DNA from: an uncultured Planctomycetia bacterium
Lineage (GTDB): Bacteria; Omnitrophota; Gorgyraeia; 1-14-0-20-64-10
Reading direction: 5' to 3'
DNA: 64,000 bases
NCBI GenBank assembly: GCA_964597545.1
Contig: CAZQXN010000001.1
Span: 133,655-197,654 of the forward strand
Every line of letters starts with the position of its first letter. Positions within the stretch are counted from its first letter, which is position 1. Position numbers and translations under genes: made by a program. The notes under the pieces were generated by a model. The model searched no databases. It worked only from the letters and a program-made list of their open reading frames with translations, and was not told the DNA's origin. Shown here one piece after another: positions 10,067 through 62,608 of the stretch.

Positions 10067-10069
10067 GGG

Positions 10070-13030: not shown

Positions 13031-13063
13031 CTGCCTGTAACGTTCTGTGGTATATTCTATTAT

Positions 13064-17375: not shown

Positions 17376-17440
17376 AAAACCTGCTGGAAAGACCAATCCC
17401 TCGTTCGTCTTTGCAATCACCTGATAAGGAGAGCCAATTC

Positions 17441-38984: not shown

Positions 38985-41900
38985 TTGTGGGCCGCCGCCC
39001 GGCGCCGGGGCTTGCGGGGCCGGCTGCTGCTTATTTTGATCTTCTTGTGCCACTCCTGTACGGAGCAAACCTCAAACCCCTTGGAGCGCAGCGCGTAAAT
39101 CCCTGCGGCTAAGGCATCCGCTCCGGGGATCGTAGTGACACAGGGAATTCCTCGGGAAACCGCCAGGGAGCGGATCCGGGTTTCATCGACCTTGGTAGCC
39201 TTGCCGGAGGGGGTATTGATGATCAGATCCACCTTTTCATCCCTTAGGAAATCCAGCACGTGCGGCCGTCCTTCATAGATCTTCTTTACCACTTGGGTCT
39301 CCACATGGTGCCGCTTTAAGTAATCGGCAGTCCCCTGTGTCGTCACAATCTTAAAACCCATCGTCACCAACTGCCGGGTAAATCCCGCGATGAGCGGTTT
39401 ATCCTGATCTTTGACGCTCAAAAAGACCGTCCCGGATAAAGGCACCTGCTGATAAGCGGCCATCTGCGACTTGGCAAAGGCCAATCCGAAGCTGGCATCA
39501 ATGCCCATGACCTCGCCGGTGGAACGCATCTCAGGCCCTAAGATGATATCAACACCAAAGAAGCGGGAAAAAGGAAAAACCGATTCCTTAACAGCGGTAA
39601 AGGGCGGGGTAATCTCCTTTGTCGCCCCCTGCCCGGCCAAGGTATCCCCTGCCATGATCTTGGTGGCAATCTTGACCATCGGCATGCCGATGGCCTTGGC
39701 AATAAAGGGAACCGTTCGGGAAGCCCGAGGGTTGACCTCAAGAACATACACCTCGGCCCCCTTGACCGCAAACTGGATGTTCATCAGCCCCCGGACATTG
39801 AGCTCCTGGGCCAAGCGGCGGCTGGCTGCCCGAATCTCCTCCACCACCTTGGGTGCTAAGGTGTGGGGCGGCAGGGCCATCGCCGCATCTCCTGAGTGTA
39901 CACCCGCGGCTTCGACATGTTCCAAAATTCCACCTACCAGAGAAGTTTTCCCGTCTGCAATCATGTCGACATCCACCTCGACGGCATCCTCCAGGAACTT
40001 GTCCACCAAGACCGGGCGCTCCGGAGGGGCCTGGACCGCCGATGCCATGTAGGCGCGCAAATCGGTCTCGTCGTAGACAATCTCCATGGCCCGCCCACCC
40101 AACACATAGGAGGGGCGCACCAGGACCGGGTAGGTGAGCTGCTTGGCAATTTCTAGGGCCTCGCCCGGAGTCCGGGCAGTTCCGTTGGGGGGCTGCTTGA
40201 GCTTGAGGCGATGGATCATCTCGCTGAACTTCTCCCGGTCCTCGGCCCGGTCAATCTCCTCTGGGGCGGTTCCGATGATGGGGACCCCGGCTTGGCTTAA
40301 CGCCAGGGCGAGGTTGAGGGGGGTTTGACCCCCAAGCTGAACAATGACCCCGGCCGGTCGCTCAGCCTCAACAATGTTGAGGACATCCTCCAGGGTCAAC
40401 GGTTCGAAGTAGAGGTCATCAGCGGTATCGTAATCGGTGGAAACCGTTTCAGGGTTGGAGTTGACCATGATGGTGCGATAGCCGGCCTCCCTCAAGGCAA
40501 AGACTGCCCGGACACAGCAGTAGTCAAATTCAATCCCCTGTCCGATCCGGTTGGGGCCGCCGCCTAAGATCATGATCTTCTTCTGGGCTTGAGCGTCACG
40601 CGGTGTGGGGGCTGTACGCTCAGGAGTCGCTGCGCTTTCGAGGGCAGCCGCCACCGCTGGGCGCTCATAGGTCGAGTAGTAATAGGGGGTAAAAGCTGCG
40701 AACTCCGCAGCGCAGGTATCCACCATATAGAAGAAGGGCCGGATGTTGTGCTGAAGCCTCAAGGCCCGGATCTCCATCTCAGACTCACCCCAGAGAAAAC
40801 CCAGCTGCCGATCACTGAAGCCGTATTGCTTGGCCGTCCATATCAACTCCGGGGTGGGCTTGGCCCCCTGGAGCTGGCGTTCCATCTCCACAATCTGCCG
40901 AATCTCCCGGATGAACCAGGGGTCGATTTGGGTGAGCGCAGTCAACGTTTCGTCCGAAAAACCATCCAGCATGGCTTGTCGGATTCGAAAAATTCGTTCT
41001 GCATGAGGGATGCGGAGCCTCTCTTTGAGCGCCTCAGCCCCTAGCGGTGAGGACTCCTTCCCCCCTGCCCCCAACCCGAAGTGACCGGTCTCTAAGGACC
41101 GTAACCCTTTCTGCAGCGCTTCCTTAAAGGTCCTGCCAATGGCCATGGCCTCTCCAACCGACTTCATCTGGACCGTTAGGGTGGGATCCGCCGCTGGAAA
41201 CTTCTCAAAGGCAAAACGCGGAATCTTGACAACACAGTAATCCAGGGTGGGTTCAAAAGAGGCTGGGGTCTGACGCGTGATATCGTTGGGAAGCTCATCT
41301 AGGGTGTAGCCCACTGCAAGCTTGGCCGCAATCTTGGCAATGGGAAAACCGGTTGCCTTGGAGGCCAGGGCTGAGGAGCGCGAGACCCTTGGGTTCATCT
41401 CGATCACCACGCGGCGCCCGGTTGCAGGGTCCACCGCAAACTGAATGTTGGAACCCCCGGTCTCAACCCCGATCGCCCGAATGCAGGTAATGGCTTCATT
41501 GCGCATCGCCTGATATTCCTTGTCGGTCAAGGTCTGGGCCGGGGCCACGGTGATGGAGTCGCCGGTGTGCACCCCCATGGGGTCCAAGTTCTCAATCGAG
41601 CAGATGATCACGACGTTGTCGTTCTTATCCCGCATGACCTCCAACTCAAATTCTTTCCACCCCGCTACCGATTCTTCAATGAGCACTTCAGAGACCATGC
41701 TCAGGCTCAACCCCGCCTCGGTCGTGGCCTGAAACTCTTCCCAGTTGTAGGCTATGCCTCCGCCGGTTCCGCCCAAGGTGTAGGCCGGCCGGATCACCAC
41801 CGGTAAACCGATGGCTTCAGCCACTACCTTGGCCTCCTGCAGAGTGTGGGCAACACCGCTGCGAGGTACATCCAACCCGGCCTCCTGCATGGCCCGCTTA

Positions 41901-42295
41901 AAATCGTCACGATCCTCAGCCTTCTGAATGGCCTGCTGGTCGGCGCCGATCATCTCTACGTTGTAGCGCTTGAGCGCCCCACTCTGGGCTAACTGCATGG
42001 CGACATTTAAGCCGGTTTGTCCGCCCAGGGTAGGCAGCAGGGCATCCGGGCGCTCCCGAGCGATGACCTTCTCGATCGCTTCAGGGGTAATGGGTTCAAT
42101 GTAGGTTCGATCCGCAAATTCCGGATCGGTCATGATGGTGGCGGGGTTGGAGTTGACCAGAACCACCGAATAGCCCTCTTCTCTCAAAGCCTTGCAGGCT
42201 TGCGTCCCGGAATAGTCGAACTCGCAGGCTTGGGAGATGATGATCGGACCCGAGCCGATGATCAGAATCTTTTTGAGGTCAGTCCGCTTGGGAAT
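38981..42295 (-). CDS. carB: Carbamoyl-phosphate synthase large subunit (paralog 2, pyrimidine-operon copy) with non-canonical start
   Basis: Full-length CarB (...[37 protein letters not shown]...). An in-frame TAA at 42320..42322 lies 9 codons upstream of the conserved PKRTD. No ATG/GTG/TTG occurs between them. The only candidate start is ATT at 42295 with GGAGA 7 nt upstream. The track starts at an internal TTG at 42187. Confidence 0.8.
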
Positions 42296-43013
42296 GGTCT
42301 GGTCTCCGCATGGCCGGGCTTACCGGCAGATCAAACTCCAACACCGGCATGGTATGAAATTTTCCCTGGCCTGCCCGGTAGGTGGCAAAGAGGGGTGCAA
42401 AGGTCTGCCAGGCCGACTCGCTCCGGGTCAGGCGGGCCCGAGCAGTAATGATCCAATTGGTCCCTGTCTGCACAATGGCCAGTGCGATCTCCTCTGCGAA
42501 TAGCCGCTCCGGAGGCGAGCCTTCGGGCAGTGTGAGGCGCAGCTCCTTGCTGTACAGAAACCAGGGGCCGCTGGCATCGGGCGCCTGGTCAGGCTTCTCC
42601 TCTGTCTGAGTCCATCCTGCGGTGTGCAGCTTGACGCCGACCGGCAGTCGAAGCAGCAGGTGCAGTTGGGCGTCCGGCTCCTCTGACGGCTCCCACTGTT
42701 CTGGGACGCTTTCTACCACAAGCTTGACCAAAGCGACCTCTCCGGGTTCCAGCTTCCGCTCCGGCGCCTCAAAGCGCACTCGGATGGGCGATGGGGCTGT
42801 CTCAACCGTCGGAGCCGGAGAGGGTGTCTCAGCCGACATCTCTTGGGCCGGTGCCGGCTGCGTAGCCGGTCTGGCCCGCCGGGCACCAAACTCAAGGGGT
42901 TCAAGAACCGCCTCTTCCTGTGGCTCGGGCAACGGGGTCGAGGCATGCCGCAACACCACCACCGCAGCGATCACTCCCACAGTCAGCAAAATGCCGATTG
43001 CGATCTTCTTCAT
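42279..43013 (-). CDS. Hypothetical membrane-anchored Pro-rich protein between carA and carB2
   Basis: N-terminal TM ([17 protein letters not shown]), Pro/Glu-rich linker, then ~150-aa domain. No recognisable family. Confidence 0.35.
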
Positions 43014-44287: not shown

Positions 44288-45535
44288 TTAGAAGAGGGTC
44301 AGCTGTTTTTCCTTTTCCGGCGCCCCCGATTCCTTTCCCTTGAACTTGAAGATGTTAACCTCGCCATACTCCCCGTCGTAGCCGGGCAAAATCTCCACCT
44401 CCCCCTTGCGCACCCGAAGGATCCCTTCAGCCAGCTTCTGGGGAAGCTGTTTGCGCAGCTCCTCGGCCGGCAAATCGATTAGGATCTCAAACTCGGTGCC
44501 GACCCGCCCAACCAAATCCAGATATTCCTGCTGCACCCTTTTGGACTGTACCCCTACCTCGCGCGCCTCAGAGATGATCTGATCCAGCGGCACCATGCGC
44601 TTAAAGGGGATTGCCCCTTCCGGGGTCTGTCCTGCGGGGCGGTCGGCCAAAGCCTGCACCCGGTTCATGACTCCGACGGTGATCTTCTTACCGCAGGCCG
44701 GGCATCGAGTGCCCTGCCGGGCCGTCTCCTCGGGTGAAACCCGAACCTTGCAGGGGCGGTGGCCGTCAAAGTGATACTTCCCCTCTTCAGGGAAGAACTC
44801 CACCGTATACAGGAAGCGCTTGGCATCCTTGGTCTTCAAGATCTTTGCGACCTCGCGGTACTCCATCTTGCAGTCAAAGACGTTGGCCTCCCGACCGATG
44901 CGGCTGACGGAATGAGAGTCTGAATTGGAGATGAGCGTATAGCGGTCAAGGCCGCTCAAGCGCCAATTCATCTCAGGGTCTGAGGAAAGCCCGGTCTCTA
45001 AGCAGTGGATCTCGCGCGCCTGGTCTCCGAAACACTCTTCTACCGTGTCAAAGCCTGAGTAAGAGCCGAAGATGGAGAACCATGGCGTCCAGGCATGAGC
45101 AGGCACAATGAGGATTTCGCTGGAGATGTCCAAAACGAGCTTCACCATGTCCCGAGCAGAGAGGCGCAGGAGCGGCCGTCCATCTGAGTTTAAGTCACCG
45201 TAGCGGGCCAGCTGCTTGTTAGCCGCCTCGGCAATCTCTAGGCTCGGGAAGATGAGGACCGTATGGATACGCTTGTTCTTTCCGCCGACCAAGAATTGGT
45301 TGTTCACCTCGGCGGTCGGTACAAAATGCACCCCGCAGTACTCATAGAAACCACCCGGGGTGACTTTGAGTTTGGTTTTAAGCTCCAGCATCCAGAGGGG
45401 ATGCGTACAGTCTCCGGTTCCAAGCAAATGGACCCCTTTGTACCGGGCCCACTGGGCCAACAGGTCCAGATCCAGCCGGGTACTGGTGGCGCGCGAGTAC
45501 CTGGAGTGCAGGTGAAAATCGGCAACGAGTCTCAT
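44288..45535 (-). CDS. PHP-domain protein, endonuclease Q-like (TIGR00375-type)
   Basis: N-terminal DFHLHSRYSRATS...LLGTGDCTHP is the PHP metal-binding motif. C-terminal zinc-finger CPACGKKI. Confidence 0.5.
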   Translation of the reverse strand: MRLVADFHLHSRYSRATSTRLDLDLLAQWARYKGVHLLGTGDCTHPLWMLELKTKLKVTPGGFYEYCGVHFVPTAEVNNQFLVGGKNKRIHTVLIFPSLEIAEAANKQLARYGDLNSDGRPLLRLSARDMVKLVLDISSEILIVPAHAWTPWFSIFGSYSGFDTVEECFGDQAREIHCLETGLSSDPEMNWRLSGLDRYTLISNSDSHSVSRIGREANVFDCKMEYREVAKILKTKDAKRFLYTVEFFPEEGKYHFDGHRPCKVRVSPEETARQGTRCPACGKKITVGVMNRVQALADRPAGQTPEGAIPFKRMVPLDQIISEAREVGVQSKRVQQEYLDLVGRVGTEFEILIDLPAEELRKQLPQKLAEGILRVRKGEVEILPGYDGEYGEVNIFKFKGKESGAPEKEKQLTLF

Positions 45536-45929: not shown

Positions 45930-46619
45930 TCACTCTCTGAACGTAAGCTCTTCCACTATGACCCCGTCCGGCACAGTAAAGACAAAGGACTCAGGAGGGA
46001 TCGGGGCATTCACTTCGATATCGTAAAATCGATGGATCAAAATCTCTTTGTCCTCTGAGGTCAGCAGTGCGGTGCGACGCGTTAAACCATCCCCCTCTGC
46101 CACATCAACCCGAACGGTCTTGATCTTAACTGGGGCGGTTTCGTTCACCGCATCGAGCGGATCGGCCTCAAAACGCAGGAGGGTCTGACCTTCAGCCTCA
46201 ATCCGTTCGATAAACCGAAGGGTATCTAATTGAAGATCCGCAAAGGGCTGGTGCGGCCCAGGGGGGAGCGGTGGATTGGTGATTTTGTAAATGGTGTTGT
46301 CTTCAATCCCATGCTGCCACTCTACCTTGCCGTCGTCCACCAACAGCTGGCTGTTCTCGACCTCGCCTGCATATCGGATCTCCAGGCGCCTGAGGTTAGG
46401 CCGTTGGTAAAAGAGCTTCCCCTCCAGCTCGATGGGCTCCTCCCCCTCCTCCTTGACCTCCAGAGAGAATCGAGCTTTGTAGCTCGTGAGGGCATCGACC
46501 TTGGCTTGAAGTGCCTCGGCCTCCTCTGGAAGGGCTGGGCTTTGAGCCCAGGCAGCAAGGGCAACGCCCATAACCAGCAACACCACACACAATGTCCTAT
46601 AAGCCAGATCGCGCTTCAT
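45930..46619 (-). CDS. LolA-like (outer-membrane lipoprotein carrier fold) secreted protein
   Basis: Start at [10 protein letters not shown] with a signal peptide, directly abutting the pyrC stop. beta-rich LolA/LppX-like pattern. The long N-terminal extension in the track is rejected. Confidence 0.4.
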   Translation of the reverse strand: MKRDLAYRTLCVVLLVMGVALAAWAQSPALPEEAEALQAKVDALTSYKARFSLEVKEEGEEPIELEGKLFYQRPNLRRLEIRYAGEVENSQLLVDDGKVEWQHGIEDNTIYKITNPPLPPGPHQPFADLQLDTLRFIERIEAEGQTLLRFEADPLDAVNETAPVKIKTVRVDVAEGDGLTRRTALLTSEDKEILIHRFYDIEVNAPIPPESFVFTVPDGVIVEELTFRE

Positions 46620-47923
46620 GTCACCACCCCTTCCATGAGCCGGCCGCCACTGACCCTCTGCCTGCCGGCCACCAACACCTCTGTCACTTGCCCTTTCATG
46701 CGCCAGCCCAAGAAGGGAGAGTTGGTGCCCCTTGAAGCAAAGTTGCCGGCCTCCACTGTCCAATCTGCCTTGGGGTCAAAAACCGCTATATCTGCAACAG
46801 CGCCCGCGTTGAGTGTCCCCCGGTCGATGCCGAGCAGCTCGGCCGGCCGCGCGGCAAGCGCCTCAACCATCCTGGAAAGGGTAAGCTGCTTGCGATGCAC
46901 CAACTCCGTCAAGAGCGCCCCGAGGGCGGTCTCCAGCCCCATCGCTCCGAACGGGGCATGGGACAACCCCAACTCTTTTTCTGCCTGCGCATGCGGCGCA
47001 TGGTCGGTGGCCACCACATCCAAGGTGCCGTCGGCCAATCCCCTGCGCAGGGCTTCTTGATCCTTCTGGGACCTCAGCGGCGGCTTCATCTTAAAGCGGG
47101 CATCATAGGTGCTCAGCGCCTCTTCGGTCAGGGTTAGGTGGTGCGGAGTCACCTCGGCTGTGACCTGAACTCCTCTGGCCTTGGCGGCGCGAATCATTTC
47201 GACACCGGCTGCGGTGCTCACATGCGCAATGCGAAGCTTTCCGCCGACGGCCTCTGCCAGAAGGATGTCTCGCGCAATCATGATGGTCTCAGATTCAGCG
47301 GGGATGCCAACCAACCCTAAGCGCGTGGACGTCACCCCCTCATGCACCACCCCCTGACCGGAGAGGGTATGGTCTTCGCAGTGATCGATGATGGCAAGGC
47401 CTGTCATCCGGCTGTACTCCAGTGCCCGCCGCATCAGCCCCGCATTTTGAACCGGCATCCCGTCATCAGAAAAACCGACCGCCCCAGCCGCCTGGAGCTC
47501 TGACATCTGAGTTAGGGTCTCTCCCTGCAGTCCCATGGTCACCGCCGCAATCGGCAGCACCTGGATAAGTCCCACCTTGGTTGATTCATTTCTGACGTAT
47601 TCCACCACCGTTGCCGAGTCCACCACCGGATCGGTGTTGGCCATGGTGCAGACCGTGGTGAAACCCCCTTGAAGGGCAGCCAGGGATCCGGTTTGAATGG
47701 TCTCTTTGTGCTCTTGGCCTGGAGAGCGAAAGTGCACGTGCAAATCAATGAAGCCGGGGCTGACCACCTTGCCCTTGGCATCTAAGATCTCGGCGCCGTT
47801 GGCCTTTAGATTTTTGCCGACCTTGGAGACCTTGCCCTTCTCAATGAGCAGGTCGGTTGTTTCATCGACCCCTTGCGCCGGATCGATGAGGCGGCCCCCT
47901 TTGATCAACAACGACTTGCTCAT
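46616..47923 (-). CDS. pyrC: Dihydroorotase
   Basis: [10 protein letters not shown]...[15 protein letters not shown]...metal-binding His/Asp pattern of amidohydrolases. Confidence 0.85.
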
Positions 47924-52243: not shown

Positions 52244-55200
52244 ATGGGGAAATCTTTCACCAGAATCTTTACCCTTTTGCTGGCGCTAAGCCTTGCCCTG
52301 CCAAGTCCTGCTTGGGCCCTGCGCAGTCAAGAACCCATAGAGACTACTGCAGCCACTGGGCTCGAAGAGGCCCTCTCCGGCCGGAAGGAAGGGGAAGCGC
52401 ACGTTGATGGCCACCTCATAGCAAGGCGCTTCGCCGAGCTGCTCAGGGAGGGGCGGACCAACCCAGCAATTCACTCTGGCGCGCCCTCCTCAAAACCGCT
52501 TCAGCGAGACGACATTACGCGAACCGACGCCAGAGAGGTGGTTTGGGAGTTGAGCGAAAAGGCGCTTAAGGGTGCGCTCAACGAACTGTGGGAGCGAGTG
52601 CTGCGGCACTCCGCTTATTGGAGACAGTTCCGCAAAGAGATCGATGTGGGCGCGCTCGGTCCAAAATATATAGAGCAGGGAATCGTCGATCACCTGTTCT
52701 CCATCTTAAGACACCCATTGGCCAATGCCGTTGATGCCTTGGTGCGAGCGTCCTATCCGGTTTTCGAGGATGCCGAGATTGCCGTCCTATGGTCTGTGCG
52801 GGGGCAGGAAATCCGGATTCAGATTTTGGATACAGGCTCTGGAATCGCCCCGGATGCCCTTGGTGTGCTGGGTCAAGAACTCATCGAAAACGACAAGGCG
52901 GACGAACTGGGGTCTTTTGGGCGGCAGGGGCGCGGGGCGTTCATTGCTGCGCGCTTGGCTGCAGCAGAAAATTGGCAGCTCAGTTTCGCCAACCGCGATG
53001 GCACAGGGGGCGCTGTCGTATCGCTGATTATCCCCCTCACCCCCACCCTCTCCGGCCAGGAGGAAACTTGGGAATTAAAAATCCAAGCCGGTTATACCGA
53101 TGCTCAAGTGACCGTTTTAGGCGTGGGCTTTATCGGCAGCCGAATCATGCAGCGTCTTTTGGGCTCCTACGGAGCGCTGGTCCGGACGGTCAAGGGAACC
53201 ACCACGAAAGCTTCTGAAAATCTCGCCACTCGGTTCTCCGATTTCCCCGCCTACCCGAAGCTGGCTCCAATCCAAGGAGATCACCGCAATGCCGAAAGCG
53301 TTCGCCGGTTCATTGGGGACTCCAAAGTCATCCTAGATACTGCCGGTCTTGCTTGGCAACACAAATCCGGGGGCAAGCCCGCCACCTTGGAAGAGGAGCT
53401 GCTCCAGAATGCAGCCAGCGCGGCGCTGATCGGACAACTGCTGGGTTCCTATCAGCGCCTCGTCTGGACCTCCAGCAACGCGGCCGATTACATGTTGGCT
53501 CGATTGCGCACTCATGAACAAGCTGTGCTCCTGAAAGAAATCGACGAGCGCGCCCGGCGCTACGTTCAATTCTCCAAGGGCCTTCCCTCTCAAGAAGCGT
53601 GGGGTGATTTCGTCCGACAGGATTTAGCTGAGTTTCAACCGCAAACTTTTGAAAAAGGCCCTAATCAAGCGGCAGCGGTCTTTGCAAAGGCATTCAGCTA
53701 TCCTTACTCCAAGCGGCTGGGGGAGCGAATATTAGAAATTGTATCGGAGGATCCAGAGAAAGACATCTGGGTGCTCAGGATCTCAGATGTATACGGCCCA
53801 GGCCAAGGTTTAGGGAAGGAGTTCTGGCATCCGGAGCGCGAGCGGCGGAAAGCAGCCAGGCGTCCACAATGGTTCATGGCGATTTTTGAAGCGATTCGCA
53901 ACGGGCAATTTGAGCCCTGGAAAACGGGGCAGGATTTCTTTCAAAGCAAGAACGAGCAGACCATCTACAACGACTTTGTGGCCCCTGTTTATATTGATGA
54001 TGTCGTGGAGATGATCCTGCGCGCCTCTGTGTTGGAAAAAGATTCGGACACTCCAGGTTCCGCAGTCCTCCAACTAAGCGCCCCGTGGATGACCAATCAG
54101 GCGATGGCCGAAACTATTGCCCAACAGGTCGGAATCGATCTGAACATTGCTGTGGGGGATCCGATCCTTCGACAGCAGCCGCTGGCAGCAAATTCGGGCT
54201 TGGCCCTTTTGGGCATGCAGGGAGAGCTTACCTCTTTTGAGGATGGGGTGGCCCGCCATTTGGACTGGTGGCGCCAGCCTCAGGTCCCCGCCGGCCAGGA
54301 GGAGAAACGAGCGCTGGCTCGGCATCTGAGGGATTGGGTAATCCCTCGGCTGCGGGCTCAGCTCCAGGCGGAGGAACAGATCGGTGTCGGCCGTCTGCGC
54401 AGGACGATCGGCGAGATTCAAAGCGACCAACCCTTTATCCAGGGAGGGGTGGCCTATGTGCCTGCTCGCCAAGGCCGATTGATTGTCCTTGGGGATCTCC
54501 ACGGAGATCTGGTCATGTTTGAGAAGATCCTTGACCAAGTGGGGTACGACCCCGAGATCAATCCAACGCTTCCGCCCGAACTTCAAGCGCACCTGGTGAT
54601 GGCTGGGGACCTTGCGGAGGGGGGTAGGCAGAACATCAAGCTGGCCAATCGGCTGGGGGAAATCAAGCTGAAGGATCCGAATCACGTCATCTTCGCAGGG
54701 GGCAACCACGACCAGGAATTGGTTCTGTGGGATTCACCGATCATCTCGAAGTATCCTCATTTCACCTTCTTGTCCAAAGAGCTGGCTGACCTGTTGGGGC
54801 CGGAGGAGGGAATGTCGATCTACGGGGATTGGAATGGTCTTGGGCGCGCACTTCCGGTCCTGATCGCTTTCCCCAACGGGATCGTCGTTGTGCATGGAGG
54901 GGGGCCCTCTCTGGCAAATCCTCCGCCACCTGGGCTTCCAGAGCAATTCCGCACCACCTTCAGCCCCGAAGCGGGCCTGTTGGGCATTGAGAATCCCATC
55001 ATCCAGGACCAGATGTCGTTTAACTTCCTGTGGGGATCCCACCTGGCTCGTTCCATGCCTGAGGTTGATGAGGTGATCGCGCTCAGCTCTAGAACCAGCG
55101 AGCGGGGAATGCACCCCGGCTTCTGGATCTCGCGGAACAGCCATTTTGGGTTCCTGGATTCGATTGGGGGGAAGGTTTTGGTTCGGGGACACGACTCCTG

Positions 55201-58200
55201 GGCCCCTCACGATCAAGTGTTCTACGATGGGACCGTCTTAACGCTTCAGTCCACCGATTATCGCTCACCAGACCACGCCTTCCAGAGGGATCGTCAACTG
55301 ATCGGCCGCTACGCTGAGTTCGATTTAAGCCAGACCTATGACCGGATTGATCCTGAGGGGGTAGTCAAGTATCTGTCCTGGGCCTCCGGCCTGGAGGAGG
55401 ATATTGCGGCCGAGGCGGCCGCTCTTCAAGAAGAGGGTCGGCCATTCAAGTTGGACCTGCATTGGCACGGCGTCGATCCGGATGGAAGATATCAAAAGGA
55501 CGGCAATGTCTCTCTTGTCAGCATTGGGTTCGACAGAGGGCGAGCGGATGTGCGGGGTGCCGCGCAACATGTGCAGCAAGCGCTCAGGCAGGCCACGGAT
55601 CATCCAGATGTGCGCATCGTAGCCGGCGGCAGCGAGAACTATGTTGCTGTCCTGCTGCCGCGGAAGCCTTGGGGGATGGAACGTGTTGCGCGCGAAGAGC
55701 TTCCGGGTGACCTCTCAGAGTGGCTCACTGTCATTGTGGGCGATTCCCTGGGCCTGGACTTTCTCTCTCTGGAACAGCAAGAGCGGTTCCCCACAGCATC
55801 CCTCCAGATATTGGTTCAGGGAAAGGAGGCCGTCTTGCCGCCTCACGCTGAAGAGGTCGTTCTCGCCAAGAAGGGCGGCGACGGTGTGGATGCCCTGCTG
55901 ACAGATCTGCTTCGGGTAATCGAGCGGGGCGGGCAGTACCAGGAGGTGGAATCCTTTGGAGAGCAACTGCCAGGGGACTTCCAGGATAAAGCCCTTAATC
56001 CTAAAAGATTGCATCTTATCTTTGATGTCGACAGCACGTTGATGGCCTCACTGGACACGTTTGATGCGCAGCAGCACGGAAAGCAGGGGCAGGAATTTAA
56101 GGGGGAGCGGCTGGAGAATATCGCCCGTCTGGCGGAGCGCGGCGTCTTCTTCAGGTTTGGAAGCGGCAAGGCCTTAGAGGAGGTCTCCGGTGACCGAGCC
56201 GTTCCTGACTGGGATCGTCTGCTGATCCCAGTTGTAAAGGCTTTCATGGATCGCAGGATCCCTGTGCAGCAAGTGGGATACGACGGCGTTTCCGGACAGC
56301 AAAAGGTGCGGGTGCGACCCGGAACAGAAGAACTGCGCTTTAGCCGAAGAGAGCTTCCGATCAGCCCGGATCGTCAGGTTTTTACGAATCAAGAGGTGAT
56401 ACGGCTCTTCCGCTTAGGCCTCCAGGCGGTCCAAGCCAATGCCAAGCCGACTCAACCGGGAGCCGACGCCGCCGGTCAGGAGGAGATAGCACAGGTTGCA
56501 GTAGAGGCTAGAATTTTAGCAATGGATCTAGGCGGAACTAACCTTCGGATCGGTTTGGTCAATAAGCGGACAGGAGAACTGTTTCCTGGAACGTTGCGCG
56601 CGCATCCCCTCGAATTCCTTCCGGGCACATCGCATGCCTCTGGTCGGAATGCCGAGGTGATCCTCCATCAGATTCTAACAGCTGCTCAAGCCTTATTGTC
56701 AGATATAGGGTTGGATTCTTTCGCTGAGATTGGAGGTGTCGCAGTGAGTATTGCCGGCAGCCTGAGGGAAGGGGAGGGGGTTGTTCGTTTTCAAGCAAAC
56801 CTCCCCTTTTCAGGACAGAATCTTGCTGCGCTCCTATCGCACCGGTTTAATGTTCCTCCGCAAGCCATTGTTCTTTCAAATGACGTAAGGGCTGGACTTC
56901 GAGCTGAGATGCACTATGGCGCGGGTCAAGGGCGCCGGGCCGGCTCGGTCGGATATTTCTCGGTGGGAACCTCCGCCAATGGGGCTTTTTTATCCGATAA
57001 GGGAGAAATAGTTAAGTTAGACTCAATTGATTTGATCAGATCGTGGATCAGGGAAGTCTCCATGCGTGCCGGAGGAATGCACCTACCACATCGGGCAGTA
57101 GAACAGGGAATGCCCTCAGCCACTGTTGGGACAACACAACAGGTTTGGGAGCAGGCGCAGGCGAGCCATGAAACTGCCAAAAAACTTATTCGGAAAGCAG
57201 CTGAGTCGATAGGAGAGGCTCTCGTCAAGATTACGGAGGCCGTAACAAAAGAGCAGGAGTTTCTTTGGATCCTCGGTGGCGGTGTGGTTGAAGGAATGGG
57301 TGAGCCGTTTGTTGAACAAATTCGGGCTTCAGCCGATCAGGAGCTCCATGAATCCCGTCGTGGACAAAGAATTACCATTTGTCTCTCTCCGTTGGATGGC
57401 CGAGAACGAGGGCTTCGTGGTGCAGCTTTGAGCGTTGCCGCCGGGCTGGAGGAGCAGGTTTCCCAGCGGGATGCGGCCGATATTAATCTGCTTTTCCAGC
57501 ATCTGGCCAACCCGGTAGATCAGCGGCAGATGCCCGAAACGTTCGATGCGGTCGTGGTCCTTGGTAATCCGAATCCTCAGCAAAATGGGGCGGCGGCGGC
57601 CGAAGCGATCCATCAGTTTAAACCAAGCTTCGTTGTGATAACAGGCACAGCCGAAGAAACACCTCAGTTTAAGAACGTGCTGTCCCAGCACGGCATTAAG
57701 GATCTCATCGAAGATGCAGCTGCGAGGCATACGGGGGACAATGCTCGAAACAGCGCCCGACTGCTGAAACCCAAAGGGCTTCCCGATTCCCCGAACATTC
57801 TTCTGGTCTCTGACCCACTGGCGGCAACCATCGCTCTGCGATTTTTCGAGCTGCAGTTTGCAGATGAATGGGGAGGGCCGGCAAATTTCTACAGCTACAC
57901 AGCCTCGTTGCCTAGCGTAACACCGGGAACGAACCGTAGCGAATTGGGAATGCAAGTGCAAGCGGGGATCAATATTTTTAGGAGCCTTAACGACTATGCT
58001 GGCACGTTCATTTCGGATCACGAAGCAGATCGGGATCCTCAAGTGGCCGCAGCGGTGCAGCGGCTTCGTGACCAAAACTATACCGCCGGCCAGGAGGAAA
58101 GCGCACTAGCGCAGGCTTTGTCCGACCCTGAGGTGCAAGCGGGCCTGGAGGACAAGGGCTGGGCCCAAACGAAAGCGCTGGGGCCAACTGTCTTTGTTGG

Positions 58201-58597
58201 GGACCCAACCCAGCTGAGAGCGCCAATCGGGTGGCTCTTTCTGCACGCAGGACTCAATAGACCAAAGGGGCTCTCTCCCAATACGCCGGTGGTTCGGATG
58301 CGCGCGGACAGCGTCCCGGAAATGCTTGTCTTTTATGATGAGCAGAAGCTCTCCGGAAGGGATGTGTCGCTGGTCAACATGACTCTGGTTACCCCGGAGG
58401 AGGTCTGGGCCTCTTTGCCGGTTACCGATGACCCGCATGCAGTGATCGGGGCCTTGAGCGGGGCTGAGCCGAATGCCGCGGAGACCAAACTACTTGCGGT
58501 TATCTCTCGCCGGGTGGGACCGATTTTTAGCTGGAAAACCACCCGCTATACCGCCCAAGACGGGCGGACCTACCTCGTCATCCAAATCCAGGTGTAA
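52244..58597 (+). CDS. Giant (2117 aa) signal-peptide multi-domain protein: GHKL-ATPase-like / SDR epimerase / PPP-family metallophosphatase / ROK sugar kinase / DUF218 / novel conserved C-terminal domain
   Basis: Signal peptide MGKSFTRIFTLLLALSLALPSPAWA. GHKL boxes: LANAVDAL, ILDTGSGI, GSFGRQGRG. SDR: VLGVGFIGSRI, YPYSK. PPP phosphatase: LGDLHGD, AGDLAEGG, GGNHD, VVHGGG, VRGHD. ROK: ILAMDLGGTNLRIGLV, NDVRAGLRAE. DUF218: AVVVLGNPNP...HTGDNARNSARLL...ILLVSDPLAATIA. C-terminal ~155 aa are shared with ORF 60980..62608. Confidence 0.6.
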   Translation: MGKSFTRIFTLLLALSLALPSPAWALRSQEPIETTAATGLEEALSGRKEGEAHVDGHLIARRFAELLREGRTNPAIHSGAPSSKPLQRDDITRTDAREVVWELSEKALKGALNELWERVLRHSAYWRQFRKEIDVGALGPKYIEQGIVDHLFSILRHPLANAVDALVRASYPVFEDAEIAVLWSVRGQEIRIQILDTGSGIAPDALGVLGQELIENDKADELGSFGRQGRGAFIAARLAAAENWQLSFANRDGTGGAVVSLIIPLTPTLSGQEETWELKIQAGYTDAQVTVLGVGFIGSRIMQRLLGSYGALVRTVKGTTTKASENLATRFSDFPAYPKLAPIQGDHRNAESVRRFIGDSKVILDTAGLAWQHKSGGKPATLEEELLQNAASAALIGQLLGSYQRLVWTSSNAADYMLARLRTHEQAVLLKEIDERARRYVQFSKGLPSQEAWGDFVRQDLAEFQPQTFEKGPNQAAAVFAKAFSYPYSKRLGERILEIVSEDPEKDIWVLRISDVYGPGQGLGKEFWHPERERRKAARRPQWFMAIFEAIRNGQFEPWKTGQDFFQSKNEQTIYNDFVAPVYIDDVVEMILRASVLEKDSDTPGSAVLQLSAPWMTNQAMAETIAQQVGIDLNIAVGDPILRQQPLAANSGLALLGMQGELTSFEDGVARHLDWWRQPQVPAGQEEKRALARHLRDWVIPRLRAQLQAEEQIGVGRLRRTIGEIQSDQPFIQGGVAYVPARQGRLIVLGDLHGDLVMFEKILDQVGYDPEINPTLPPELQAHLVMAGDLAEGGRQNIKLANRLGEIKLKDPNHVIFAGGNHDQELVLWDSPIISKYPHFTFLSKELADLLGPEEGMSIYGDWNGLGRALPVLIAFPNGIVVVHGGGPSLANPPPPGLPEQFRTTFSPEAGLLGIENPIIQDQMSFNFLWGSHLARSMPEVDEVIALSSRTSERGMHPGFWISRNSHFGFLDSIGGKVLVRGHDSWAPHDQVFYDGTVLTLQSTDYRSPDHAFQRDRQLIGRYAEFDLSQTYDRIDPEGVVKYLSWASGLEEDIAAEAAALQEEGRPFKLDLHWHGVDPDGRYQKDGNVSLVSIGFDRGRADVRGAAQHVQQALRQATDHPDVRIVAGGSENYVAVLLPRKPWGMERVAREELPGDLSEWLTVIVGDSLGLDFLSLEQQERFPTASLQILVQGKEAVLPPHAEEVVLAKKGGDGVDALLTDLLRVIERGGQYQEVESFGEQLPGDFQDKALNPKRLHLIFDVDSTLMASLDTFDAQQHGKQGQEFKGERLENIARLAERGVFFRFGSGKALEEVSGDRAVPDWDRLLIPVVKAFMDRRIPVQQVGYDGVSGQQKVRVRPGTEELRFSRRELPISPDRQVFTNQEVIRLFRLGLQAVQANAKPTQPGADAAGQEEIAQVAVEARILAMDLGGTNLRIGLVNKRTGELFPGTLRAHPLEFLPGTSHASGRNAEVILHQILTAAQALLSDIGLDSFAEIGGVAVSIAGSLREGEGVVRFQANLPFSGQNLAALLSHRFNVPPQAIVLSNDVRAGLRAEMHYGAGQGRRAGSVGYFSVGTSANGAFLSDKGEIVKLDSIDLIRSWIREVSMRAGGMHLPHRAVEQGMPSATVGTTQQVWEQAQASHETAKKLIRKAAESIGEALVKITEAVTKEQEFLWILGGGVVEGMGEPFVEQIRASADQELHESRRGQRITICLSPLDGRERGLRGAALSVAAGLEEQVSQRDAADINLLFQHLANPVDQRQMPETFDAVVVLGNPNPQQNGAAAAEAIHQFKPSFVVITGTAEETPQFKNVLSQHGIKDLIEDAAARHTGDNARNSARLLKPKGLPDSPNILLVSDPLAATIALRFFELQFADEWGGPANFYSYTASLPSVTPGTNRSELGMQVQAGINIFRSLNDYAGTFISDHEADRDPQVAAAVQRLRDQNYTAGQEESALAQALSDPEVQAGLEDKGWAQTKALGPTVFVGDPTQLRAPIGWLFLHAGLNRPKGLSPNTPVVRMRADSVPEMLVFYDEQKLSGRDVSLVNMTLVTPEEVWASLPVTDDPHAVIGALSGAEPNAAETKLLAVISRRVGPIFSWKTTRYTAQDGRTYLVIQIQV

Positions 58598-58600
58598 AGA

Positions 58601-60709
58601 CTATACCGAGCCCCGGTAGGATTCTGCTGCCCGGCCAAAGAGATGGGTGGTCAGCTGGCAGGTGCACGCGAATACAAAGGTCGCAAAGAGATAGCTCTCT
58701 TCTGCCAACCGCCAGATGAGTTTCAGAGGGTTTAAGCGATCGAGCCGCCCCCTCCGGAGACTGGCTCCTGCCTCCTTCCAAAAGCGCTCAATAGGTTTGC
58801 GCGACCAGGTCAAAGAGGTGCTGAAGGGGTTGTGCTGCCGGATCCATAGCCAAAGGCGGGAAGGAACGCGCTGACTGCGGCGCACCATGTGCTGTGCGCA
58901 GGCCTTCCGGCGGCGGGCAAAGGCAACGGCCCGCTGATAGGCCCACTGAAGCTGGCGCTGGCGCAGCTGGCGCCATTGCAACACATCGGCGTGGCGCTTG
59001 CGGAGGTGCTCCACCACCAACCGCTCCACATCGCTGCGGGGGTGGGTCTGCAGCCAAAGCTCCTCGAGCTCAAAGAGTAGGTCTAACCAGCGCCTTGCGA
59101 AGGTCCGGCAATCCCTAAGGCGCCGCTTGAAATATTGCCAACGTCCTTCTATCGGCCAGCCCGGCCTGCGCTCAAGCCGGTGCCGAAGCTTAAAGAGGCC
59201 GTGGATCATGGGGTGACCCTGCTCGACCACAATGGCGTTCTTGTGCCAGAGGAGGTTGGCAAAAACCTTCCAGTAATTCTCAGCTGAAACCCGCCGGAGT
59301 ATCGCCTTCATGTTCTCCATGTCATAGAAAGAGACCCTGGCCTCGGCATAGGCCCCCCTCCATTCTTCTTGGGTCATCCGGGGGTGCTCAACGGTGGCAT
59401 GGCAGGTGTTATAACGGTTGAGGTCCGGATCCAGGGCTACCCCGCGGCGGATCAAGTCGGCATGGTCCTTGGAGCCGGGTAAGGGGGTCAGCATAAAGAA
59501 AGAGACCTGGTCGGGTGCCAGGGTGGTTTTTAGGGTCTCGATGTCCCGGCGCACCGACTCTCTGGTGTCGAACGGGAAACCGATGATGTAGGCCACGTGC
59601 GTGTTGATCCCTCCCGCACGGTAGGTGCGGATGGCCTCGCCAAACTTTTCGGTCCGATTCTGCCGCTTCTCGGCGGCCACGAGGTTGTCGGAGTTTAGGC
59701 TCTCCACCCCTAAGAAAACCTGGGTGCAGCCGGCCGCTTTGGCCTTCTCGATAAACCGGGGGGATTTGTACGACTGGGTATCCACCTGAATCATGAAGGA
59801 AAGTTTAATCCCCTCCTCCTTGTGCAGGCGGATCAAGGCATCAAAGATCGCCTCCCAGTGTCTGTTTCTGAAGAAGTTGTCATCTGAGAAGAAGTAATAA
59901 GAAATCTTGCGCCGGTGGTAATTGTCTCGAATCAGCTCCACTAATCGCTCCACCTCTCTGAATCGCATCTTGCGCCCCTGAACATTGATCACGGTGCAGA
60001 AGGAGCAGGCAAAGGGGCAACCCCGGCCGCAGTCTAGGGTGCCGAGATTGGGAGCTAAGAAGCGTTTTCTGTACCGCTCGCCCACCTTAGGCATGGGGGC
60101 GCTTTTTAAGTCGGGTGGGGAGCCCAAAAAGTTGTATACCTGCTGTCGCTTGCCCTCCAGCACATCCCGCAGGATACCCTCCCAGCGGCCCTCGATCTCG
60201 CCGGCAACCACCGTAACCCCGGCATCGATCAAGCGCTGGATCTCGGTTGGGATTTGAGGCAGCATGGCGATCGAACCACTCACATGGAAACCGCCGATTA
60301 AGACATCGACTCCGCCTGCGCGAAGCTGGAGCGCCAAGTCTGAGGCCCGGGCAAATTGGCATGACTGCACTCCAACCAAGCAAGTGACAACGTTGGTGTG
60401 TGGGTCGCGAGCGGCACGGAAGATCTTTTGGAGGCTAACCCGCTCCAGTGTCTCGTCGATCAGTGTGACCTTCCACTGGAGAGGCCCCAGGGCTTCTCTC
60501 TGGCGGACATCTTCGGTGAGGCCGTGCAGGCAGGCCAAGGTGTTGCTGGGCAGAAGTCCGCGCCAGTAACGGATGACATAGCCGTCATCGTCATACTGCG
60601 AGGGCTTGATCAGATAGATCGCCAGCCGTCGGATCTTGGGTTGGGTAAGTAGTAATGTCTTCATCTTAAAATCTGCTGTAACGAAATATCCCCGTGGGAG
60701 GGTAATCAT
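58601..60709 (-). CDS. B12-binding radical SAM protein (class B, DUF4070-type) with ~200-aa basic/aromatic C-terminal extension
   Basis: N-terminal B12-binding Rossmann-like region. Radical SAM core CGRGCPFACSFCTV (CxxxCxxC). C-terminal extension ends in a hydrophobic segment. Likely true start is MKTLLLTQP at 60664. Its stop lies 3 nt from the giant gene's stop (convergent). Confidence 0.65.
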   Translation of the reverse strand: MITLPRGYFVTADFKMKTLLLTQPKIRRLAIYLIKPSQYDDDGYVIRYWRGLLPSNTLACLHGLTEDVRQREALGPLQWKVTLIDETLERVSLQKIFRAARDPHTNVVTCLVGVQSCQFARASDLALQLRAGGVDVLIGGFHVSGSIAMLPQIPTEIQRLIDAGVTVVAGEIEGRWEGILRDVLEGKRQQVYNFLGSPPDLKSAPMPKVGERYRKRFLAPNLGTLDCGRGCPFACSFCTVINVQGRKMRFREVERLVELIRDNYHRRKISYYFFSDDNFFRNRHWEAIFDALIRLHKEEGIKLSFMIQVDTQSYKSPRFIEKAKAAGCTQVFLGVESLNSDNLVAAEKRQNRTEKFGEAIRTYRAGGINTHVAYIIGFPFDTRESVRRDIETLKTTLAPDQVSFFMLTPLPGSKDHADLIRRGVALDPDLNRYNTCHATVEHPRMTQEEWRGAYAEARVSFYDMENMKAILRRVSAENYWKVFANLLWHKNAIVVEQGHPMIHGLFKLRHRLERRPGWPIEGRWQYFKRRLRDCRTFARRWLDLLFELEELWLQTHPRSDVERLVVEHLRKRHADVLQWRQLRQRQLQWAYQRAVAFARRRKACAQHMVRRSQRVPSRLWLWIRQHNPFSTSLTWSRKPIERFWKEAGASLRRGRLDRLNPLKLIWRLAEESYLFATFVFACTCQLTTHLFGRAAESYRGSV

Positions 60710-60772
60710 CCCCCGGGGATCGCAGTAAGGCTATTGTAGCACCTTTGGGGCAAAAAGACTGTTTTTGGAGTG

Positions 60773-60850
60773 GTGTAGCTTCCTGGACGACTTTAGAACT
60801 TTCTGTAGGGGCCGGGAAGCATCCGGCAAGTTGGCCGAAATAACCCGCGC
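60773..60850. repeat. Direct repeat DR1 (~80 bp) upstream of the paralog gene
   Basis: GTAGCTTCCTGGACGACTTTAGAACTTTCTGTAGGGGCCGGGAAGCATCCGGCAAGTTGGCCGAAATAACCC is ~80% identical to DR2. Confidence 0.6.
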
Positions 60851-60979
60851 CTTATTGTGGCACTCCATACCCTATCGACCCGAGCGGACACCGACCCTGT
60901 TAGCCTTAATTGTAGTTAGCTCGTCCCCTTTCATTTTGCTCTTGGGTCAGCTATACTTATTGTATTAAGTCCCAATCCA

Positions 60980-62608
60980 ATGAAAATGCGTAGAACCGCT
61001 CTAAAGATCGTGATGGTTGTCCTGGTGGCCAAGCTTGTCCTGCCCAACCCTGCCTGGGGACTACGAGATTCCATCGAGGATGAAACCCCAGGTGGGTTGG
61101 CAGCTGCTTTTGGAATTACTGCCGCTGGGCTGGAGGAGAATCGGCCGCTGGCGATTAACCGAAAAGCTATTCCGGTTCGAACGGCCGCTTTCTCGTTCGA
61201 GAACCCGGCAGAAATACAGGCGGTTGACCAGAAGTTGGGTGAAGCGGCTAGGTTATTCTCAGAAATCGGGTGGTTTGACCGCCATCCGGAATCATTCCAG
61301 CACACCACCGAGATCTCTGCGCACGGAAAGCGTTCGGGCATTGGAGGGTTGGCTTCTTCTGATCGCCCAGGAGAGCTATGGGTTCGAACTGAAGGCCTTC
61401 CTGTTTTGGAAGTTGTGAATACGCTAGCCCATGAAGATCGGCACAATGCGATCTATGCCGGCGCGCGTTGGGCGCGGATTGTAGAACACGAGGGTGCGAT
61501 TCCGACTCGCTTCGATCACCGCTGGTGCCCGGATGTCAGGCCTTCGGCCAGAGACCTGCTGAACGAGCTGGATGCATACGTGTTTTCCCTCCCCATTTCT
61601 CTTCAGATATGGGAGGCGAAACTGCTACCTGAAACCCCTTTGGCGGTTGAGGAGCTTTTCATGCTGTTGTTCCGGGCCGAGGAGGCAATCCGGCTTCTCG
61701 AGGAAAGCCGAGAAAAGGTCCTGAATGAGGATGGGGCGACGTGGCTGGAAGAATTAAAACCTTTGTGGGCCAGGCGGAGAGAGGCGGTTGAAACCCGTTG
61801 GGATTGGGACTCCGTGATGGCCTCTCTTGCAGGCTCTCAGGAGGAAGCAGTTCGCGCGATTTGGTACTTCCATGTGGGGGAGCTCTGGAAGGCCCGCCCA
61901 AATGAACAAACAGCTTATGAAGCGCTGTTGATCCAAACGCTCGCCAAAGAACGCAACCCGGTTTTCCTGCAGGAGGAAGTAGGCAAACAGCTTTCCCTCC
62001 TGGAAATGCCGGTAAAATTGCAAGAGCTGGTTGAGGCGCGGTATCTTTCGCTGACAGACAAAGGCGTGGAGCATCTTTCCGCTGATGCGTCCCTCATCGA
62101 CCAGCTAAAGGATACCGCTGGACTGGAGGAGGTGGGGCAAATAGTGACATCTCCGGAGGTGCAAGCCGGTCTCAAAGCTGCTGGATGGGCTTCCCTTGGA
62201 GAGGGTCGTTACGTTGTGAATCCCGCTAGACTCCAAGGATCCATTGGGCGACTCACTCTACATGCAGGGCTTGAGGAGCCGGATGGAGTTCCAGAGAACG
62301 CGATGGTTCGCATGGAAGCTGGTTCAGCCTCGGAGATGATCGCTTTCTATCGGGAACATCAACTGGGGCGAAATGACGTCGTCTTGGTCAACATGAAGCT
62401 TGTAACCCCAACAGAGGTGCTTGCTTCACTCCCCCTCAGCACACCATTCGCTGTGCTCGGCTCTACCCCCCAAGAGCGTCTTGCCTTGGGGACTCTCCTG
62501 TTCCTTGCGGAACTTTCCCGTAACATCGGCCCTATCCTACACGCTGACATCCGACCTTTTACCGCAGAGGATGGTCGATCTTACGTTCTGGTTGATATTC
62601 AAGCGTAA
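60980..62608 (+). CDS. Secreted paralog (542 aa) sharing N-terminal LPxPAW[AG]LR motif and C-terminal ~155-aa domain with the giant protein; contains an HExxH motif
   Basis: Signal peptide MKMRRTALKIVMVVLVAKLVLPNPAWG. TLAHEDRHNAIYAG. C-terminus PEVQAGLKAAGW...LHAGLEEP...VRMEAGSASEMIAFY...VVLVNMKLVTPTEV...TAEDGRSYVLVDIQA aligns at ~45% identity with the giant protein C-terminus. Confidence 0.5.
   Translation: MKMRRTALKIVMVVLVAKLVLPNPAWGLRDSIEDETPGGLAAAFGITAAGLEENRPLAINRKAIPVRTAAFSFENPAEIQAVDQKLGEAARLFSEIGWFDRHPESFQHTTEISAHGKRSGIGGLASSDRPGELWVRTEGLPVLEVVNTLAHEDRHNAIYAGARWARIVEHEGAIPTRFDHRWCPDVRPSARDLLNELDAYVFSLPISLQIWEAKLLPETPLAVEELFMLLFRAEEAIRLLEESREKVLNEDGATWLEELKPLWARRREAVETRWDWDSVMASLAGSQEEAVRAIWYFHVGELWKARPNEQTAYEALLIQTLAKERNPVFLQEEVGKQLSLLEMPVKLQELVEARYLSLTDKGVEHLSADASLIDQLKDTAGLEEVGQIVTSPEVQAGLKAAGWASLGEGRYVVNPARLQGSIGRLTLHAGLEEPDGVPENAMVRMEAGSASEMIAFYREHQLGRNDVVLVNMKLVTPTEVLASLPLSTPFAVLGSTPQERLALGTLLFLAELSRNIGPILHADIRPFTAEDGRSYVLVDIQA

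Follow-up and report, generated by a model that had tools for sequence, protein, structure and literature searches.

The window analysed here is a 64,000-nucleotide stretch of contig CAZQXN010000001.1 (assembly GCA_964597545.1, positions 133,655 to 197,654), a chromosomal piece of an Omnitrophota bacterium that carries, surrounded by housekeeping genes, a giant and a small open reading frame (ORF) on either side of a radical S-adenosylmethionine (SAM) gene. Among the named homologues of the radical SAM protein, the best come almost without exception from 'Candidatus Omnitrophica/Omnitrophota'. Upstream of the two ORFs, the window has lpxA and genes for pyrimidine biosynthesis and polysaccharides. 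The original prediction had described their products as a two-member secreted family, confined to 58150-62608, with shared termini and unrelated middles. That interval leaves out the N-terminal motif of the giant, located at 52244-52324, but the similarities themselves are real. Residues 1935-2116 of the giant and 370-541 of the small protein share 81 of 182 positions in BLASTP (45%, E=1e-35), in agreement with the roughly 45% identity of the original prediction, and nothing aligns beyond the termini. A hidden Markov model (HMM) of this C-terminal domain, hereafter the terminal domain, detects it twice in the window and no more, namely in the ORFs at 52244-58597(+) and 60980-62608(+).

What had been missed is the strongest signal of the region, a pentapeptide of the form [AST]-G-[LQ]-E-E, here called the delimiter, which stands at every domain junction of the giant. 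There are seven copies in the giant, against 0.157 expected from its composition (Poisson P=4e-10), a number that no shuffle out of 20,000 attained, and three in the small protein; a six-frame scan of all 64 kb returned just two further matches, which is the chance level. The density in the giant is 3.3 per 1000 amino acids, compared with 0-0.09 in about 65,000 amino acids of other Omnitrophota ORFs. In both window proteins one delimiter directly follows the leader and one directly precedes the terminal domain. The resulting grammar is fixed: a leader ending in A-x-[AG]-L-R, a first delimiter, one or more cargo modules each followed by [AST]-G-[LQ]-E-E, and a terminal domain of about 160 amino acids (Table 1).

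Table 1. Features of the two modular ORFs and the gene between them (window positions; aa, amino acids; nt, nucleotides)
Feature	Residues	Position	Strand	Remarks
Giant ORF	2117 aa	52244..58597	+	leader, six delimiter-separated cargo modules, terminal domain
Giant leader	1-27	52244..52324	+	MGKSFTR / IFTLLLALSLAL / PSPAWA-LR
Leader-proximal delimiter TGLEE	38-42	52355..52369	+	
Decayed delimiter SGRKEG	45-50	52376..52393	+	aligns with SGQEEG of the L001 giant
Delimiter SGQEE	270-274	53051..53065	+	HATPase_c / epimerase-like module boundary
Delimiter AGQEE	683-687	54290..54304	+	epimerase-like / metallophosphatase module boundary
Delimiter SGLEE	1048-1052	55385..55399	+	metallophosphatase / FDVDST-containing module (aa 1053-1409) boundary
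Delimiter AGQEE	1410-1414	56471..56485	+	ahead of ROK kinase module
Delimiter AGLEE	1733-1737	57440..57454	+	ROK / DUF218 module boundary
Delimiter AGQEE	1948-1952	58085..58099	+	directly ahead of terminal domain
Giant terminal domain	1953-2117	58100..58594	+	last strand YLVIQIQV
Radical SAM gene	702 aa	58601..60709	-	convergent with giant, 3-nt gap
Small ORF	542 aa	60980..62608	+	leader, delimiter, HEDRH-motif cargo, delimiter, terminal domain
Small-protein leader	1-29	60980..61066	+	MKMRRTALK / IVMVVLVAKLVL / PNPAWG-LR
Small-protein delimiter AGLEE	49-53	61124..61138	+	
Small-protein cargo	54-379	61139..62116	+	DRPGE...LAHEDRH, HExxH at aa 151-155
Small-protein delimiter AGLEE	380-384	62117..62131	+	ahead of terminal domain
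Small-protein terminal domain	385-542	62132..62605	+	ends YVLVDIQA

Each Pfam match of the giant (HATPase_c, residues 151-266; Epimerase, 290-381; Metallophos, 745-984; ROK, 1469-1577; DUF218, 1768-1877) sits between two delimiters, giving the order HATPase_c, epimerase, metallophosphatase, FDVDST module, ROK kinase, DUF218 and terminal domain with a motif at each junction. The FDVDST sequence, which we take to be a HAD-type DxDxT signature, belongs to a module without a sequence relative in the PDB. Duplication of housekeeping genes of the window was ruled out as the source of these modules, none of which has a BLASTP match among them at E<1e-3. Database relatives show the same arrangement. 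In P0141, residues 869-1390 make up a complete formate-tetrahydrofolate ligase (profile positions 11-542 of 556, E=1.6e-169), with motifs at 862 and 1406 on either side; in P0138, a sugar-nucleotide dehydratase (83-409) lies between motifs at 39 and 456, and a GNAT domain (1730-1849) between motifs at 1706 and 1874. The delimiters thus apparently bracket whole, intact enzymes, and GDLHG, GNHD, DLGGT, FDVDST, GxGxxG and GEGKTT in the window giant and P0141 are presumably their catalytic signatures.

The small protein is identical in sequence to database protein P0121. Its cargo has no Pfam and no PDB match and holds an internal GSQEE at about residue 284; the AlphaFold2 model of this cargo (pLDDT, the predicted local confidence, 43.9) is unusable. 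Weak alignments connect it to modules of P0125, P0140 and P0147. HExxH occurs in the cargo of the window small protein, P0126, P0140, P0147 and P0134, whereas, roughly estimated, fewer than one such occurrence would arise by chance. These modules are candidate processing enzymes.

The leaders of the two window proteins are only weakly similar in a pairwise comparison (BLASTP, E=0.002), yet the PxPAW[AG]LR motif that the original prediction had picked out is supported by recurrence: a conserved x-[WFYLIVH]-[AG]-[LM]-R follows the hydrophobic segment in at least 17 full-length relatives. Two seeming exceptions, P0131 and P0144, have miscalled starts, and their corrected N-termini carry the leader. 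In the giant, a basic n-region precedes a 12-residue h-region and a proline-containing c-region with Ala at -3 and -1, followed by the conserved Leu-Arg. As read from the sequence, leaders of this class have the attributes of a Sec signal cleaved by signal peptidase I (an n-region that is basic, 10-15 residues of h-region, and small side chains at -3 and -1), and by the -3/-1 rule we infer that they are signal peptides. Other secreted-looking proteins of the related loci end in A-x-A without Leu-Arg; the Leu-Arg variant is therefore specific to the modular class.

The terminal domain is rare. An exhaustive HMMER search with a profile of both window domains, run against 1.84 billion protein representatives, recovered 27 clusters at 50% identity, so that the description 'two-member' fits the window but not the family as a whole. 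Such a search was needed, as a word-indexed protein search found nothing with a single sequence and only P0146 with a 25-sequence profile. All named sources of these proteins are metagenome-assembled genomes of Omnitrophota, in which the proteins are annotated as hypothetical. Searches of GTDB representative genomes, a subset of Joint Genome Institute metagenome contigs and IMG/VR, made with peptide patterns and P0132 as query, gave chance matches or none, and no true match. In the 27 clusters the domain is always the extreme C-terminus, and nearly all full-length members with a terminal-domain match also carry the leader. This is the behaviour expected of the sorting or secretion tag that had been suggested, but the domain resembles no known tag. 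Members with almost no cargo, consisting of leader, spacer and domain, exist (P0130, P0146), and the terminal domain therefore has a role of its own.

Neither the two proteins nor 25 aligned domain sequences yielded a Pfam or NCBIfam match or a PDB sequence relative for the terminal domain. AlphaFold2, run on the 25-sequence alignment, predicts (pLDDT 94.6; predicted template-modelling score, pTM, 0.89) a domain of about 160 amino acids with two helices, a β-hairpin, a flavodoxin-like α/β core and a C-terminal β-hairpin, for which Foldseek returned nothing at E≤0.001 from the PDB and BFVD. Judged by this model, the terminal domain is a previously undescribed family with a confidently predicted fold. 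The invariant and near-invariant residues are Gly, Leu and Pro only, with no conserved Cys, His, Ser, Thr, Lys, Asp or Glu; the domain is therefore no obvious enzyme or receiver. A protease role was rejected on the lack of conserved Cys, His, Ser, Asp or Glu. Binding of B12 was likewise rejected: the His of LHAGL is Gln in most members, and there is no DxHxxG signature. The predicted likeness to CheY-like receivers and other flavodoxin-like domains is at the level of the fold only. There is no sequence relation, an N-terminal helical and β-hairpin element and a C-terminal β-hairpin are added, and 25 members show no match to PF00072 at E≤1, no invariant acidic residue and no conserved acidic pocket or phospho-acceptor Asp.

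The delimiter is conserved as a peptide. A comparison of 61 motif sites from 11 genes shows different codons in use (GAA or GAG for Glu; CTG, TTG, CTC, CTT and CTA for Leu; all four Gly codons) while G-[LQ]-E-E stays fixed, and the primary constraint therefore acts on the peptide. Of 52 internal sites, 45 have A, S or T ahead of the Gly, without any other flank preference. At the nucleotide level, the junctions of the window form a family of 19-nt repeats with seven copies; CCGGNCWGGAGGA occurs six times in the window, always within the giant, against 0.08 expected. In locus L001, a relative described below, all six internal junctions of the giant read TCCGGCCAGGAGGA. The junction DNA of both giants includes the Shine-Dalgarno-like GGAGGA.

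These features bear on the idea that the motif is a nucleic-acid signal: GGAGGA, acting like a Shine-Dalgarno sequence, would make ribosomes pause or initiate internally between domains, and the pentapeptide would be its translation in frame. C[AT]GGAGGA is present at 9 of 11 window sites, the alternation of Leu and Gln requires a single change from CTG to CAG that leaves GGAGGA untouched, and there is a modest codon bias (GAG 72% against a background of 61%; NTG Leu codons 76% against 53%). However, an in-frame start codon lies within 18 nt downstream at only 1 of 20 junctions, and about 45% of the 61 sites lack GGAGG, through GAA or other Leu codons, yet retain the amino acids. Internal initiation was rejected on these grounds. 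The codon data make a nucleic-acid signal unlikely as the primary constraint, and as an overall explanation we consider it very improbable.

Many leaders, among them those of P0135, P0147/P0151, P0141, P0130 and the second gene of locus L007, have a pair of delimiters that a short spacer keeps 10-30 residues apart; such 'empty' intervals might correspond to a peptide that is set free, to a scar left by recombination or to a means of raising avidity. In the window giant, a 20-nt direct repeat connects the leader-proximal ALSGRKE with the first true junction, TLSGQEE. The two copies, at 52371-52390 (over the decayed SGRKEG) and 53046-53065, are 90% identical over 20 nt, and the repeat looks like the scar of a deletion or insertion from junction to junction.

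Comparison with relatives, which share leader and delimiters and carry highly varied cargo mostly without a Pfam match, shows where the modules are exchanged. In loci L001-L003, from three metagenome samples, the radical SAM protein is 92% identical to that of the window and its gene is convergent, at the same 3-nt spacing, with a giant of 2603 amino acids. Even so, no more than three parts of the L001 giant match the window giant, namely the leader (68%), a single HATPase module (60%) and the terminal domain (32%), and the alignments end 1-8 residues from delimiters. Between SGREEG and SGQEEG the L001 giant has an extra dehydratase module, at a place where the window giant retains only SGRKEG. 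The terminal domains of these two syntenic giants are of different subtypes; that of the window giant is 47% identical to the one in the small protein of the window and about 31% identical to the one in L001. A methyltransferase-like module common to P0132 and P0133 lies at different positions in the two and is bounded by motifs in both. Most pairwise alignments of terminal domains start 0-3 residues from the preceding delimiter. In these alignments, homology between relatives starts and stops at the delimiter, and such junction-centred shuffling between near-identical genomes is an unusually clear instance of domain-cassette evolution. Family members often stand in tandem (L005, L007, L017 and L021).

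The grammar, as read from these relatives, is broader than the terminal domain. A 1637-residue gene product of L007 and a 2874-residue one of L017 have the leader and 5-9 delimiters with other C-termini. L017 (positions 1-13198, GCA_016196355.1) holds tandem genes for 5475, 2874 and 1065 amino acids, all GLEE-delimited, of which the third alone carries the terminal domain described above; the 5475-residue protein has delimiters near its end and a different C-terminus, and the 2874-residue protein has no Pfam match at all. Near P0144 in L021, two delimiter-bearing genes at 1891-4584(-) and 4878-7301(-) encode 897 and 807 amino acids and share a different C-terminal domain of about 160 residues (48% identity, E=7e-38) that ends in ...TFRSA and ...TLHSA, respectively. 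This second terminal domain suggests that several alternative terminal modules operate within one grammar.

The genomic settings differ as well. The copies of the window, L021 and L022 lie in chromosomal housekeeping contexts, and the L021 member shares with the window a pyrR-lpxA-methylase neighbourhood. L004 (365-8209, P0126) and L005 (1765-13084, P0131 and P0132) are islands with tyrosine integrase, HTH_17 excisionase-like and DnaD/replication-initiator-like genes, and some copies therefore seem to ride on integrative elements. The L005 island adjoins serS, and L006, with integrase, HTH_17 and replication-initiator-like genes, is grouped with it.

Based on the above data, we tentatively propose that both ORFs encode Omnitrophota-restricted, Sec-exported modular proteins in which the delimiter is a recognition site, probably for processing, and also an exchange seam, while the terminal domain is a handling module; among the readings considered, this is the one that we hold to be the most plausible, short of being established as probable. 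In such a mechanism, the modular proteins would leave the cytoplasm through Sec. The delimiter would be recognised at the protein level and most likely cleaved, as are the boundary sites of MARTX toxins, freeing the modules after export. A separating recognition site is the best explanation because it accounts for the grammar, the conservation at the peptide level and the recurrence of the motif next to the leader and ahead of the last domain, and proteolytic release following Sec export is favoured because of the analogy with the MARTX inter-domain sites and with polyvalent proteins processed by zincins. Junction DNA that is nearly identical over 13-19 nt within one gene would provide the seam for inserting, deleting and swapping modules, and the terminal domain would serve as a common sorting, anchoring or assembly module, being neither an enzyme nor a radical SAM substrate. 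Cells of the Omnitrophota are ultra-small and probably depend on a host, and the phylum is known for its very long and giant proteins. More speculatively, since the cargo is of cytoplasmic type (ROK kinase, NAD-dependent epimerase, phosphatases, formate-tetrahydrofolate ligase), the modules might be destined for the inside of a host or prey cell, in keeping with the host-dependent lifestyle proposed for the phylum.

Several observations weigh against this proposal. Export is read from the sequence of the leaders, and their conserved Arg, at +2 from the point where signal peptidase would presumably cut, is not usual among Sec substrates. ATP- or NAD-dependent cargo is hard to square with a periplasmic or extracellular site, unless it is delivered, as speculated above, into another cell. 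The fold of the terminal domain is unlike any known secretion tag, and the delimiter forms the N-terminal turn of a helix in its model and could be a structural helix cap. No protease was tied to the motif; as for the candidate HExxH modules, they can be aligned only weakly, the first His is missing from one homologue (P0125), and the model of the small protein's cargo is of no use.

The main rival is an uncut multi-enzyme scaffold at the membrane or cell surface, in which the pentapeptide would be a linker or helix N-cap copied along with the modules and the terminal domain would oligomerise or attach the chain. In the AlphaFold2 model of the terminal domain the motif begins helix 6-15; near-identity of junction DNA within a gene is what copying would produce; a protease for the motif was not found; and a 2026 preprint views long multi-enzyme proteins of Omnitrophota as membrane-associated assemblies. 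A mere linker, however, would not hold four residues invariant through synonymous change across distant lineages, nor would it be duplicated in tandem with short spacers in the leaders, and it need not directly follow the leader and precede the last domain in almost every member. We therefore regard an uncut chain as possible but rather doubtful.

Less probable still are cytoplasmic enzyme arrays held by an uncleaved hydrophobic N-terminal anchor, whose modules would work where ATP and NAD are available. The cargo enzymes are typically cytoplasmic, with what we recognise as their signatures still present, and an Arg directly past the hydrophobic segment is unusual for exported proteins. Yet the charge distribution is that of a signal peptide, basic before the h-region and acidic in the early mature region; the h-region is short, at about 12 residues, and an A-x-A site that includes a Pro comes after it; and a C-in orientation would break the generally accepted positive-inside rule.

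Lastly, it had been proposed that the adjacent radical SAM enzyme recognises the terminal domain as its substrate or as a carrier, an idea that we reject on co-occurrence and to which we give almost no credence. In its favour is the close convergence of the two genes, which is retained only in the close relatives L001-L003. However, the radical SAM protein has more than 8000 homologues, compared with 27 terminal-domain clusters. Its orthologues in three more distant Omnitrophota genomes (L018-L020) adjoin a second B12-binding radical SAM gene and lie near genes for ketoacyl synthase, phosphatidylserine decarboxylase, CDP-alcohol phosphatidyltransferase or cobalamin uptake, with no protein of the tagged, terminal-domain kind nearby. 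Conversely, seven terminal-domain loci (L004, L005, L007, L016, L017, L021 and L022) have no radical SAM neighbour, and the domain alignment offers no conserved Cys, His, Ser, Thr or Lys as a target. The contexts of the orthologues and the seven loci therefore mark the adjacency in the window as a lineage-specific placement. The enzyme itself has weak NCBIfam similarity to B12-binding radical SAM families (lipid, hopanoid, methylase) and looks like a widespread lipid-related enzyme, a neighbour outside the tagged system.

The proposed exported, delimiter-bearing proteins can be compared with known modular systems. In MARTX toxins, effector repertoires differ between close strains through recombination. 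Like the proteins described here, MARTX toxins are arrays of unrelated domains on one polypeptide with short conserved boundary sites, and in their case these conserved inter-domain sites are cleaved to release effector domains (PMC3153235). They differ in having no N-terminal Sec signal, in using a type I secretion system and RTX repeats, and in carrying their own cysteine protease domain, which cuts after Leu, whereas the site here is [AST]G[LQ]EE; the window proteins have a signal-like leader and no Pfam or NCBIfam match to RTX glycine-rich repeats or a cysteine protease domain. Polyvalent proteins combine 2-15 unrelated enzymatic domains per chain, evolve rapidly as mosaics and are predicted to be processed by zincin-like HExxH proteases (PMC5512222, Iyer et al. 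2017). Possible points of resemblance are that some members of the present family lie in integrase-bearing islands and that 4-5 carry HExxH modules. Polyvalent proteins travel with DNA into a recipient and have no signal peptide, fixed delimiter or terminal domain, unlike the present proteins with their leader, strict delimiter, common C-terminal domain and metabolic-type cargo, of which the window copies are chromosomal.

A putative N-terminal Sec signal combined with a conserved C-terminal domain on diverse cargo also recalls substrates of the type IX secretion system (T9SS) such as the gingipain polyproteins, whose precursors are cut into several domains. The T9SS C-terminal domain, however, is a β-sandwich of 70-100 amino acids found in Bacteroidota and covered by NCBIfam and Pfam models, whereas the terminal domain, with its predicted 160-residue, flavodoxin-like α/β fold, matches neither these models (Por_Secre_tail) nor any other in Pfam or NCBIfam. 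The comparison with T9SS and PEP-CTERM signals made in the original prediction therefore does not hold: unlike PEP-CTERM/exosortase signals, the C-termini end in a β-strand (…LVIQIQV, …LVDIQA) without a hydrophobic helix or basic tail. Type V autotransporters are excluded by their C-terminal β-barrel of at least about 250 amino acids, as opposed to a 160-residue α/β domain. In CdiA and Rhs toxins, a VENN or PxxxxDPxGL motif marks the boundary of the exchanged modules and, in Rhs, is also a cleavage site. The short conserved peptide at a module-exchange boundary is shared with the present family, but those toxins have one boundary per protein, between a constant region and a single C-terminal toxin, and come with an immunity gene. 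Each of the present proteins has many boundaries and carries enzymes, and its neighbours include nothing that resembles an immunity gene.

The building plan of leader, GLEE-delimited enzymes and terminal domain is unreported: a GLEE-type motif was not found mentioned in the searchable literature, and two preprints on Omnitrophota giant proteins list similar cargo domains and describe no delimiter. There is a real chance that the modular proteins are a new system in their own right. Delimiter, leader and recurrent terminal domain provide a concrete, testable grammar for at least one class of long Omnitrophota proteins. If the delimiter is a processing site, this class would amount to a system of secreted polyproteins in bacteria, and the motif would be a handle for predicting functional units, and possible effectors, of an uncultivated phylum. 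Should there be no cleavage, the terminal domain is nonetheless a new family with a confidently predicted fold. That [AST]-G-[LQ]-E-E might be the general punctuation of long and giant Omnitrophota proteins, marking both the cut points of a dedicated protease in exported polyproteins and the recombination points of cassettes, is a wider claim that we consider unlikely, if by no means far-fetched. On that reading, the cleavage of secreted polyproteins in bacteria would follow a defined grammar, and giant ORFs of Omnitrophota would become computationally parsable into working units, supplying the cleavage points whose absence had blocked the structural parsing of these proteins (2023 preprint, West-Roberts et al.).

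Further observations concern the surroundings of these genes. The radical SAM gene, which belongs to a very large Omnitrophota family, is paired with a second B12-binding radical SAM gene in L001, L018 and L020, together with lipid-synthesis genes in L018 and L020 and cobalamin uptake in L020; the pair may be membrane-lipid-modifying enzymes. In the window, the small tagged gene occupies the place of the partner. The gyrB gene of L001 (1-2504) contains an intein (PF14890 Intein_splicing) according to precomputed Pfam annotation. An Rfam scan and promoter and terminator scans of the region gave nothing relevant. Sizeable ORFs of the window (244-823 amino acids) without a Pfam match at E≤0.001 lie at 992-3463(-), 3439-4416(-), 42279-43013(-), 44288-45535(-) and 45930-46763(-). 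An IS481-family transposase (rve, HTH_32, LZ_Tnp_IS481) at 11070-11975(-) stands beside a tRNA-Val/tRNA-Asp pair at 12815-13030, at the edge of a polysaccharide/ABC-2 exporter cluster. Finally, two full-length paralogues of the carbamoyl-phosphate synthase large subunit lie within 20 kb of each other, at 17411-20680(+) and 38981-42187(-), and only the latter adjoins carA and the pyr genes.

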